Assembly (NCBI GenBank): GCA_016214565.1
Contig: JACROE010000002.1
Coordinates: 792,007 to 856,006, forward strand
Source: Candidatus Kerfeldbacteria bacterium
Lineage (GTDB): Bacteria > Patescibacteriota > Patescibacteriia > UBA10025 > JAHIVO01
Direction of reading: 5' to 3'
DNA: 64,000 bases
The position numbers and the translations under genes are program-made. Each line of letters begins with the position of its first letter. Positions within the stretch are counted from its first letter, which is position 1. Positions 29,484 to 63,303 of the stretch are shown piece by piece. The notes beneath the pieces were generated by a model, which worked only from the letters and a program-made list of their open reading frames with translations, was not told the origin of the DNA and made no database searches.

Positions 29484-29649
29484 AAAGAGAAAGGTCGGAT
29501 ATGCATATGCATTCCGACCGTATATTTGTAGTGATGAAAGGGCGAATGAATTGGTGCTAAGGAGCGAAGGAAAGTGATAAAGGAAGGGGGTTTGTGTTGA
29601 TTTTGGTGTTGGGGGGTTGGGGGAGAAAGGAAGGGGGTTGGGGGAAAGT
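29484..29649 (-). ncRNA. Candidate C/U-rich small RNA 1 (about 165 nt)
   Basis: TTGTCA(29684-29679)-N17-TATAAT(29661-29656); nearly G-free body with no AUG; terminal hairpin GGTCGGA..TCCGACC followed by TTTCTCTTT. Confidence 0.6.
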
Positions 29650-34560: not shown

Positions 34561-34731
34561 AATATTATCTTCCCCGTGAACGGGCAGGAATGAGCACCTT
34601 TCGATTCCTCAAAAAAAGAGGAGGCCCGTTCGGCTTCATCCGGCATTGCCGGATTCCGCTCAGGGCACTTCGTGGTTGCTGGAACGGCATTGGGCCTGAT
34701 CCCTTTGCATCCGTTCACTCTTGATAATGTT
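34561..34731 (-). ncRNA. SAM-I (S-box) riboswitch aptamer, variant
   Basis: P1 AUUAUC/GAUAAU; AUCAAGAG; P2 GAACG/CGUUC with GGG-AUCAGG-CCC; P3 AGCAACC/GGUGCU; pseudoknot CAGG/CCUG; P4 CCCG-UUCA-CGGG; J4/1 GAAGAU. Confidence 0.88.
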
Positions 34732-60180: not shown

Positions 60181-60936
60181 ATGAGCAATCCAGATCAACC
60201 ACAACCCTCTCCCGAAGAACTCGGGCAAGATGCACAACAAAAAAATGTAGAAAACCCCGCCGAGGCTCAGTCTCAGAGTGCGGAGAAACCAAGCGCCACA
60301 TCGCAAGAGATTTACGACGGATATCTGCGTCAACGGGAAGAAGCGCTTGGCTCTGATAATCGGTATTTCGCTAAACAACATTTTGGCTATGAGGTGACTG
60401 ATGAAGAAGAATTGATGATGTACTATATTGCCAATGGCGGAGCAACTGGTTTTCGTGAGCGGAAAGAAGCGCGGGAGCGAGAACACAAGCAAGAAGCGCC
60501 TGAACAGGTAGTCGCACCCAAAACAGTCTACCATGGTTCCGTGACATCCGGGATCGAGGAATTGGAACCACGGCGGCGGTCGATACCCGGCGGGGCTGAT
60601 CCGGAGACGCACCCGGCGCTCATTTATGGTTCAGATAATCCCGCTTTCGCTGCTGCACATTCGTTTCTTTGGGGCACGGATGAGGGATTTGATCTTTCGG
60701 TGGAAAACGGTGCCGTTCTTTTCAGGGTACCCGAGGATCTACGTGACAGGTTATTGGTACCCGTCCACCTCTACACGTTAGACGGAAAGAATTTCAAGCT
60801 CACGCCTGGGGAGGGCACTGGGCATACGTTTCACACGGACCAGCCTGTTAAGCCGAGTTTGGCTGAATCGTTCGCATCAGTAACGGAAGCGATTGAGCAC
60901 TTCGGTGGCAGGGTGGAGTTCTACACTCCGGAGTAG
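60181..60936 (+). CDS. Hypothetical protein with a C-terminal ADP-ribosyltransferase-like domain
   Basis: VYHGS..GIEELEPR and LIYGS..AFAAAH resemble the H-Y-E/Arr-like ART core. Confidence 0.5.
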   Translation: MSNPDQPQPSPEELGQDAQQKNVENPAEAQSQSAEKPSATSQEIYDGYLRQREEALGSDNRYFAKQHFGYEVTDEEELMMYYIANGGATGFRERKEAREREHKQEAPEQVVAPKTVYHGSVTSGIEELEPRRRSIPGGADPETHPALIYGSDNPAFAAAHSFLWGTDEGFDLSVENGAVLFRVPEDLRDRLLVPVHLYTLDGKNFKLTPGEGTGHTFHTDQPVKPSLAESFASVTEAIEHFGGRVEFYTPE

Positions 60937-60963
60937 CAATAGTAAGCAGAATAGTTGAGCATA

Positions 60964-61149
60964 AAGTAAAAAGAGTACCGAAGCACTCTTTTGAGATATG
61001 TCATTGCCGCGATCACCACTTGGCAATGGAATTGCGCGAGGCATAGACTGAAATTCAGTCGAGCCCGCCGGTGGTGAACAATAATTTCCGAGCCCGAAAA
61101 TTAGGGGGTGCAAAAGTAAATTTGGGATAGGGAGAAGGGGCGAGGATTA
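60964..61149 (-). ncRNA. Candidate C/U-rich structured small RNA 2 (about 185 nt)
   Basis: TTGACA(61183-61178)-N17-TATGCT; C/U-rich 5' part, three hairpins, terminator AAAAGAGUGC-UUCG-GUACUCUUUU. Confidence 0.6.
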
Positions 61150-61248
61150 ATACGAGCATAGCGAATTGCGGTGCCCGTGTCAATAAGTAAAAAAACCGGC
61201 TCCTTGCGTTGCACAGGAGCCGGGTTACATGGTCAGTTGCTGGTTCAA

Positions 61249-63303
61249 TTATTTTTGCACTTGCACACTGCCTACCCCTGAAGGCAGCGTGAGAATGCGG
61301 TTTTGTTTTCCCGAAAGCGAGACCCAATACAGGCCTTGCTCGGCACGGACTGCGACTGCGGAAAAGTCGGGCGACCAGTCGATCCAGTATATTCCCACAT
61401 CTTGCATGAGAATAGTCTGGGTGTTCCAGTCGTTCGGTTCTCCGAGCGTAAGCTGGTGGCCACTAAACCAGGTTAGATAGTGAGTACGGTCGTCCGTAAA
61501 AAATAACGGTCCGAACCCTTTCTCTGAGAGCTGGTGGAGCGGCGCGAAGGTGCTGTCGGTCAGTTCTGACAGATTGATACTGAAGAGGCCGGCTGGGTTC
61601 CCCATTTTTTTAAATACTGCCAGACTGTCATCCAGCCAGACGGTACTCAGATTTTCGTCGTATTCCGTGGAAAATCTGCCGCTGATGTCACGGGCATTTG
61701 AGCCGTCCGCATTCATCAGATAGAGCCAGCCGTAGTAGCCCCATTCATGGTGGACAAAACTGATGGTTTGCCCATCAGGCAGGTAGACTGGGCAATTATC
61801 ATAGGTAGCAGATTTGCTCCGGTAGAGATGGATGACTTCACCCGTCCCTGGATTGAGCCGGAAGATTCCAGCCCAATATCGGCCAAAGAGAACGTATTGG
61901 CCGTCGGGAGACCAGCTGAAGTCGCTTGAGCGTTGGCCGACGTAATCAGGATACGACCCGATGACATTCCCTTGGGCATCCAGAACCATCAGAGCATTTC
62001 GCCCGGCGTAGACGAGCGCAGATCCGTCTGGCGCCCAGGAAAGCCCTTGGCCGCCCGGCGAATAATCTTCCCGCCATCGGAGGGGGTTGAGGCCGTCCAA
62101 GCCGATCGTGAAGATGGTATCCCCGACGGTATAGATGAGGCGATGATCAGGACAGAGATCCGCCGTGGCATGGTAGCTGTAGCTATTGCCAAAGGTGACC
62201 GCGAATGACTGAACATAGGGGAATCGCCCCGGATGTTGCACGATAAGTTCGTATTGACCGTCGCTCACTGAGTCTACATAGATTGGCGTGGTGCCGAGTG
62301 GCAGACCGTTGAGCGTTACAGTTCCAGCGCCATATGGCGAAGTAACCGTCAGCGTGGCGGGCGTAGGATTGAGATTGGTACCGATGCCAATGGTTGTATT
62401 GGCTATGATGGTGACCATCGTTTCCCACGATCGGTAACGGTCTCGTATGATACGAATTGTATGCTCACCGGTAGGGATGCCAGAGAGCCTGGCAGGCGTG
62501 GTTGATCCGGTCAGTACACCGTCTATCAAGATAGCTGCGCCTTCAGGAATGGACCATACATCCAGCATACCGGTTTGGTGCACGAGGGTGGCCGCCACCA
62601 TGACCGTATCAAAGGCGATCACGGTTTGATTTGACGTCCAATCTTCATAATCGGGAAGCGATAGCCGAATATGGTGAGTGGTCGCCAACAGGCCGGAGAT
62701 GACACTCGGCGTCGTCAGGTAGGTGTCCTGGTTGTCCACGAAGATTGGCGCTCCGGGCGGTTCGGATGTAATCATCAGCGAGCCTTCAAGCTTGCGCATG
62801 ATTGCATGTATTTTCAGCGTATCACCCGTGGTGTGATGGATGGCGGTATCCCAGTCGGCGTAGTCAGGATGGGTGAGTTTGATGGTCACCGTGCCGGTGT
62901 CGATCCAGGTGATGAAGGGTGTCGGCTGAAGCAGGTAATTCCGGAAATTGACCGTGGCTCCGGTCGGGTCAGACGTAATCACCATCGGATGTATCATGGC
63001 TTGTATCAGTGTCACGCGGAGCGTGTCAATTGCTCCGGGAGCAATCGACACGGAATCTTGCCAGTGGTAGTAGTTCCACTGGCTGATGCGGATGGAGTAC
63101 TTCTGGTTCGCCACGAGGTTGATCGTGAGCGGCGTGCGCTGTCCGAGCAATTGATCGTTGCTGTAGACATTGGCAACGGCCGGATCAGTGATAACCACGA
63201 GCGTGCCGATAGTCGGCTTTGGCGGTTCGGTCGGCTTGTCTTTACAAGCCAAGCACAGCAGTATGGCTACCGCCAGGCTGAGTAGAGAAAAACGGGTATA
63301 CAT
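61249..63303 (-). CDS. Lipoprotein with several PEGA repeats and a TolB-like (PD40) beta-propeller
   Basis: LAC-KDKPTEP lipobox; repeated ITSxPxGA..TP; WAPDG/WSPDG repeats; AAGGAGG SD; TTGACG-N17-TAAGAT. Confidence 0.85.
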   Translation of the reverse strand: MYTRFSLLSLAVAILLCLACKDKPTEPPKPTIGTLVVITDPAVANVYSNDQLLGQRTPLTINLVANQKYSIRISQWNYYHWQDSVSIAPGAIDTLRVTLIQAMIHPMVITSDPTGATVNFRNYLLQPTPFITWIDTGTVTIKLTHPDYADWDTAIHHTTGDTLKIHAIMRKLEGSLMITSEPPGAPIFVDNQDTYLTTPSVISGLLATTHHIRLSLPDYEDWTSNQTVIAFDTVMVAATLVHQTGMLDVWSIPEGAAILIDGVLTGSTTPARLSGIPTGEHTIRIIRDRYRSWETMVTIIANTTIGIGTNLNPTPATLTVTSPYGAGTVTLNGLPLGTTPIYVDSVSDGQYELIVQHPGRFPYVQSFAVTFGNSYSYHATADLCPDHRLIYTVGDTIFTIGLDGLNPLRWREDYSPGGQGLSWAPDGSALVYAGRNALMVLDAQGNVIGSYPDYVGQRSSDFSWSPDGQYVLFGRYWAGIFRLNPGTGEVIHLYRSKSATYDNCPVYLPDGQTISFVHHEWGYYGWLYLMNADGSNARDISGRFSTEYDENLSTVWLDDSLAVFKKMGNPAGLFSINLSELTDSTFAPLHQLSEKGFGPLFFTDDRTHYLTWFSGHQLTLGEPNDWNTQTILMQDVGIYWIDWSPDFSAVAVRAEQGLYWVSLSGKQNRILTLPSGVGSVQVQK

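Follow-up and report, generated by a model that had tools for sequence, protein, structure and literature searches.

On the minus strand of the window (the whole 64,000-nucleotide stretch of DNA analyzed here, G000:C1:792007-856006, where G000 is the window's genome, a 1.13-Mb Patescibacteria genome), the 312-bp gap between two convergent genes is filled by an element that, judging from its sequence and its counterpart in a second genome, is very probably a real, uncatalogued structured RNA gene. The folded core of this predicted RNA, rather than its C-rich start, is likely to be the working part. For its function, we tentatively favor an accessory non-coding RNA gene that acts in trans as a binding decoy through its invariant folded core. 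The features of the locus, in window positions, are as follows.

60181..60936, plus strand: downstream convergent gene, 251 aa (neighbour only)
60921..61004, minus strand: 27-codon frame opened by a non-conserved AUG and extending across the terminator; probably not a gene
60964..60992, minus strand: intrinsic terminator, 10-bp stem with UUCG loop (60992-60969) and U tail
60964..61148, minus strand: predicted RNA, ~185 nt, with ends placed from the promoter and terminator
61004..61026, minus strand: invariant block 3, 23 nt, hairpin P4 enclosing the SD-like strand; identical in the homologue (G341)
61010..61022, minus strand: SD-like strand, complementary to the 16S 3' tail of G000 and G341
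61029..61040, minus strand: invariant block 2, CUCGCGCAAUUC, 12 nt; identical in G341
61036..61068, minus strand: stem P2, with a bulged U, a variable outer hairpin and two compensatory pairs, from comparison with G341
61065..61073, minus strand: invariant block 1, CACCGGCGG, 9 nt; identical in G341
61074..61148, minus strand: variable 5' region, C/U-rich in the window copy, from 5' alignment with G341
61155..61183, minus strand: candidate sigma-70-type promoter, TTGACA-N17-TATGCT, from the sequence pattern and a G341 counterpart
61188..61223, minus strand: terminator-like hairpin and U tract closing the PEGA gene, from sequence
61249..63303, minus strand: upstream gene, 684-aa PEGA/WD40-like protein (neighbour only)

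The terminator-like hairpin separates the PEGA gene from the RNA promoter, which begins directly after it. The promoter proposed in the initial annotation reads as described, with TTGACA at 61183-61178, a 17-nt spacer and TATGCT at 61160-61155. TTGACA-N16-18-TANNNT is a genuine promoter pattern of G000, and the one usually seen there: of 125 matches, 104 are located outside the ORF cores (85% of contig C1), versus 8 of 23 matches for the reversed pattern, and the same pattern is found ahead of the rRNA, tmRNA and RNase P loci of this genome. The proposed C/U tract, which starts at 61148 (35% C and 35% U over the first 75 nt), and the proposed terminator, a 10-bp stem with a UUCG loop followed by a U tail, were likewise borne out. 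The window terminator is symmetric and is therefore likely to be shared with the convergent gene, whose 251-aa product has no Pfam or PADLOC match. Positions 61149-60964 fold with z = -4.3 (0 of 200 shuffles as good); the core alone, with the terminator removed, has z = -2.2, and the terminator thus adds to the value for the full unit.

Using BLAST against 400 other genomes of the class, we obtained seven weak matches, of which six, including one in G011, were chance matches, and one was a full homologue in a genome of another family and order (G341). The G341 copy has the same promoter-core-terminator layout, with a TTGACA-N17-TACGCT promoter that a strict scan misses because TACGCT matches TATAAT at only 3 of 6 positions. 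Three blocks of 9, 12 and 23 nt are identical and in the same order in the two copies, giving 44 invariant bases; a rough chance estimate for three ordered blocks is 5e-13. In both genomes, the gene downstream is convergent and the terminator lies 10-13 nt past the core, with no same-strand gene after it. The G341 terminator has a different stem from that of the window and a one-sided U tract, which fixes the strand. Besides the terminator stem, the outer part of P2 and the 5' region are replaced in G341, where the 5' region is A-rich and shorter than the C/U-rich region of the window. That the 5' tract, outer hairpin and terminator vary freely was counted, alongside the invariant blocks, in favor of the core as the working part.

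Both sides of the pair changed in 3 of 20 modelled pairs, two of them in P2 and the third at the P4 base, where the pair adjoining the UUGCC/GGCAA stem is A-U in the window and G-C in G341. Paired cells made up 90% in the modelled fold versus 35-50% for slid controls, all of which were beaten; covariation at this level was also reached by 52 of 500 shuffles and is not significant against them, because there are only two full sequences. The invariant bases are unchanged even inside stems, as would be expected for recognition or for double-duty pairing. In contigs of close relatives, the core is retained and the flanking DNA differs. One X4 contig retains 60968-61046 with a single change in 79 nt, located in the linker, and then diverges downstream; another X4 contig carries the PEGA-gene terminator followed by different DNA; and an X7 contig covers 60982-61108 with six differences (one listed), its loose end reading as a likely indel in the 5' tract. 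X4 and X7 belong to one study, and X1 and X2, which are possibly source DNA, were left out of the count. Supported by a copy in another order that shares the layout and has covarying stems, the proposal of a stand-alone small RNA gene is upheld as a prediction.

The initial annotation had also described three hairpins. All of the named arms are present; however, the predicted ensemble and the homologue indicate that the hairpins are not independent. Hairpin 1 has a pairing probability of ~0.18 in the window and does not occur in G341. Hairpin 3, which corresponds to P4, has a probability of 0.003 in the window ensemble because a rival three-way junction is 4.1 kcal/mol lower, whereas in G341 it is the minimum free energy (MFE) form and includes one compensatory pair. 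The window MFE structure is the three-way junction (-52.0 kcal/mol, versus -47.9 kcal/mol with P4 forced), and the G341 MFE structure is P4 (-49.5 kcal/mol, versus -43.9 kcal/mol for the three-way junction), so the two folds lie within 4.1 kcal/mol of each other in the window and 5.6 kcal/mol in G341. Within block 1, GCGG opens stem P2 and CACCG is able to pair with UGGUG in block 3; for most invariant bases, two alternative pairings are available (CACCG-UGGUG, GCAA-UUGC and UUGCC-GGCAA). On these models, the data fit either a two-state switch or a single pseudoknot with CACCG paired into the P4 loop, a structure beyond the reach of the folding program used.

Neither RNA has a better SD-like site than the SD-like strand in block 3. 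Its predicted duplex with the 16S tail has an energy of -12.7 kcal/mol, a value that 32 of 2000 shuffled versions of the invariant blocks also reached; since this match was spotted post hoc (p about 0.016), we regard it as a lead. The strand is almost fully paired in the ensemble predicted for the window, and the internal CACCG is predicted to be able to mask it; GGUG may be fixed solely through its pairing with CACC. The 16S anti-SD is intact in both G000 and G341, and the 16S tail is identical, unlike many Parcubacteria, in which the anti-SD is not intact (PMC9297842).

The same strand bears on coding potential, where the claim that there is no SD-led ORF did not survive: AAGUGGUGAU (61021-61012) is a strong SD-like match, spaced 7 nt from an AUG at 61004 that opens a 27-codon frame in the window copy. 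This frame, which runs through the terminator, is probably not a gene, as read from its sequence, and its AUG is ACA in G341. We also rejected a conserved peptide, given that no start codon is common to the two copies and that the spacing of blocks 1 and 2 differs by 2 nt between the genomes, which breaks any longer common frame. That the locus makes no functional RNA, and is instead a short peptide gene or an element that is silent or works at the DNA level, is the least probable of the alternatives we considered; an in-frame insertion of 15 nt between blocks 2 and 3 speaks for it, whereas the 2-nt length difference, the compensatory pairs and 44 invariant bases free of third-position changes speak against it.

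An orphaned translational switch, in which a riboswitch-like leader has lost its gene and remains as an empty cassette, would account for the two folds and for the order of elements in the window (anti-SD, junction, SD and, after 7 nt, AUG), which is that of a translational leader, and would be in keeping with the fast gene turnover of the region. We consider this explanation unlikely, because in both genomes the terminator follows so closely on the core with no same-strand gene after it, the AUG is replaced in G341, and 44 bases invariant across orders would be unexpected for an empty cassette. A working riboswitch or cis-regulatory leader was rejected on the convergent orientation of the downstream gene in G000 and G341.

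The initial annotation had read the RNA as anti-SD-like, one of a family with a second element in the window at 29484-29649. The conserved strand is itself SD-like, and the C-rich seed is missing from the homologue, so this reading was not sustained. CCCCUUC does occur in both window elements (at 61140-61134 in the RNA described here), but there is no evidence of kinship in this: the 7-mer is not conserved, and the G341 homologue contains no CCCCUUC, UCCC or CCUC. Aligning the two elements gave a score of 25, compared with 23.0 +/- 3.8 for dinucleotide shuffles (145 of 500 as good), and the core covariance model (R1) found no match at the 29484 locus (L338), so that kinship failed in both sequence and structure. 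The only shared 5' feature between the window copy and G341 is a weak YCUAUC motif at 61131-61126 (10 of 500 shuffles as good), of which the window RNA has one instance and G341 two, both within hairpin loops.

As to the 29484-29649 element itself (minus strand), its first ~29 nt correspond to the C-rich loop of a hairpin with a GC stem (L339, L340 and L342 at 1501-1529), which is present in G001 intergenic DNA and at two places in G003. The element may derive from a repeated element rather than being an anti-SD sRNA. In G012, a hairpin comes after an intergenic C-rich stretch (L076 16241-16391), a design like that of the 29484 element.

Target prediction, proposed as a check, did not favor pairing with mRNAs, as no mRNA start region in G000 paired better with the RNA than with shuffled seeds. 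For the C/U tract, the best duplex was -31.7 kcal/mol versus -33.2 +/- 3.0 kcal/mol for shuffles, based on crude start calls. The scan covered four seeds with 15 shuffles per seed in one genome, and its crude starts and single genome leave mRNA pairing possible. No exact complement longer than 13 nt was found elsewhere in G000. SD use is low in this genome, with 38 of 590 ATG-first ORFs reaching -9.5 kcal/mol versus 14 mid-gene controls; by eye, many G000 genes behind TTGACA promoters have strong GGAGG-type sites.

Taken with these results, a C-rich anti-SD sRNA of the RsaE/LhrC type, kin of the 29484-29649 element, is highly improbable. Two UCCC motifs and a partly unpaired CCCCUUC in the window copy are consistent with it, as are the intact 16S anti-SD of G000 and the use of SD at some genes; set against these are the absence of the seed from G341, a likeness to the 29484-29649 element no greater than that of shuffles, C/U-tract targets no better than shuffles, and the low SD use. 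We give more weight, though still doubtfully, to a base-pairing sRNA that represses mRNAs through another conserved seed (YCUAUC, the GCAAUUC linker or the P4 loop). The typical sRNA layout and the recurrence of YCUAUC, with its two G341 copies in hairpin loops, argue for this alternative, but the best start-region duplex for each of the four seeds is no better than shuffles, the genome lacks a long exact complement, and pairing with mRNAs does not require invariance inside stems.

Comparison with known RNA classes, another proposed check, confirmed that the locus has no Rfam 15 match (best local E = 1.6); the G341 copy reached E = 0.44 at best, in its terminator part only and short of the gathering threshold. 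Within the window, the Rfam scan found only a SAM riboswitch elsewhere, a SAM-I riboswitch at 34562-34730 (minus strand) that has a promoter and a terminator of its own. The RNA does not match a known housekeeping RNA, as the tmRNA and RNase P RNA lie elsewhere in G000. The tmRNA (G000:C1:788158-788558, minus strand) was found by Rfam and missed by ARAGORN; a promoter-like site is located ~260 nt upstream of its modelled start, so this gene may be longer or unusual. For SRP RNA, there was no RF00169 match at the locus, and neither SRP RNA nor Ffh/FtsY turned up in G000. For 6S RNA, the locus showed neither an RF00013 match nor a 6S-type rod, and no 6S was recognized in G000, where a divergent copy elsewhere is possible; we rejected 6S on the fold and on a patchy distribution, the RNA being missing from 21 other genomes of the order. 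A CsrB/Rsm sponge was rejected on the absence of repeated GGA loops and of CsrA from G000. CsrA is also absent from G001 and G002 and is present in G341 (C138) and in G181 (C19), both of family f67; G181 lacks the RNA. Rho is absent from both G000 and G341, which removes a Rho decoy.

In five loci (L096, L104, L106, L109 and L110), the 3' end and trailer of a phage tRNA-Arg(UCU) agree with the reverse-complemented core at 22 of 23 nt, and the core also resembles the complement of 10 nt of a G000 tRNA-Val end. Antisense action on tRNA 3' ends was nevertheless judged a chance resemblance and rejected, as no host tRNA has a matching acceptor strand. Six of 16 G341 sites were checked for tRNA location, and none was at a tRNA.

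We searched widely for further members. None was identified in the other 21 genomes of the window's order or the other 12 genomes of G341's order, and the R1 model identified none in sets of 150 and 80 class genomes, the latter set run without a positive control; weak R1 matches in G006, G108 and G164 lack the invariant blocks and were rejected. Searching 400 genomes for the 23-mer with three mismatches returned three other matches, none with the upstream blocks, and a pattern search of the phylum matched 3 of 400 other genomes, none with the remaining blocks. A GTDB-wide search for an exact 18-mer gave 77 loci with one true match (G341 DNA), and all 53 matches of a metagenome pattern scan were judged chance on reading. 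Five IMG/VR pattern scans gave 0, 21, 92, 48 and 99 loci, with no homologue among the matches listed (80 of the 92 were listed with flanks); one candidate that seemed promising at first, L312, sits inside a reading frame. Phage and plasmid blastn returned no match in one collection and a single match with E = 0.8 in the other. With G341 as the BLAST query, nine weak matches in 339 other genomes included no homologue, and the RNA is absent from the syntenic regions of G001, G002, G010 and G012 (six stretches). Because these searches used a two-sequence model and exact words, diverged members may be missed, and many of the genomes are incomplete.

The RNA is thus rare, in a pattern that fits an accessory element. 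Gene content around the locus differs in every relative inspected, indicating rapid gene turnover in this region, and its scattered occurrence suggests either that it was acquired horizontally, into variable regions, or that it has been lost repeatedly.

Such scattered occurrence in variable regions would also be in line with a toxin-antitoxin pair, or some other mobile module of two parts, in which the RNA is one half and the partner gene is elsewhere or lost. Type III antitoxins carry a pseudoknot before a terminator, as may this RNA, and a 36-aa hydrophobic ORF is divergent to the G341 copy. We nonetheless consider such a module very unlikely: it has no repeat array, downstream toxin gene or common neighbour, the small ORFs of G341 have no G000 homologue or Pfam match, three flanking proteins have no PADLOC match, and no copy was found in the phage and plasmid collections or among the listed matches of the five IMG/VR scans. 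A type I or III antitoxin proper was rejected, with no adjacent toxin gene, antisense complementarity or repeat array. The ORFs divergent from the G341 RNA (L269 61-411, minus strand) are two, of 36 aa (hydrophobic) and 49 aa, and have their own promoter.

Under the decoy explanation that we tentatively favor, transcription would run from about 61148 to 60964, and the core is predicted to fold as P4 with a CACCG pseudoknot or to toggle between P4 and the three-way junction. Either fold is predicted to mask the invariant SD-like strand, which would be exposed only upon refolding. The partner would be a protein or ribonucleoprotein titrated by the RNA, which is the least certain step, and the C-rich 5' end would not act by pairing with mRNAs. 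The sole partner candidate with sequence support would be the 16S 3' tail of the 30S subunit. The more specific proposal, a horizontally exchanged Patescibacteria RNA that is a masked SD mimic, refolds and captures 30S via the 16S tail, is by itself unlikely; if true, it would be a gene-less, switchable ribosome decoy damping SD-led translation where SD-led genes are the minority.

No description of this RNA motif was found in the literature searched, with subscription papers and supplements outside the search. According to a 2022 preprint (10.1101/2022.03.25.485537), TM7x had no validated small RNAs as of that date. The regulatory RNAs of Patescibacteria are barely known, and this locus provides a defined RNA motif with 44 invariant bases and a testable fold, as well as a warning that C-rich 5' tracts in such genomes need not be anti-SD seeds. 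Binding to 30S, if true, would represent translation control of a kind absent from the literature searched; if there is no such binding, the locus still holds an uncatalogued structured RNA. With two full members, its present weight is moderate.

Translational riboswitches and leader switches sequester an SD, and the RNA described here shares with them an internal anti-SD strand, two folds and a possible pseudoknot over the SD-like strand; it differs in having no downstream regulated gene, a terminator after the SD and no Rfam match. CsrB/RsmY and 6S are protein-titrating RNAs, which it resembles as a gene-less transcript and a proposed mimic or decoy, albeit lacking repeated GGA loops, a 6S-type rod and an RF00013 match. 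With RsaE and other Rsa RNAs of Staphylococcus aureus and LhrC of Listeria monocytogenes, it has in common an intergenic position, a promoter, hairpins and an intrinsic terminator and, in the window copy, UCCC. In those reports (PMC2790875, PMC4132741), the most conserved regions of RsaE and LhrC contain an unpaired UCCC that binds the SD of the target, whereas the homologue of the present RNA is without UCCC and its conserved strand is SD-like. Direct action on the ribosome, which is a proposal for the present RNA, is the point in common with ribosome-associated non-coding RNAs (PMC8632108); the example described there is an 18-nt mRNA-derived fragment, unlike the structured RNA described here, which would be the product of a dedicated gene and for which ribosome binding is a prediction.
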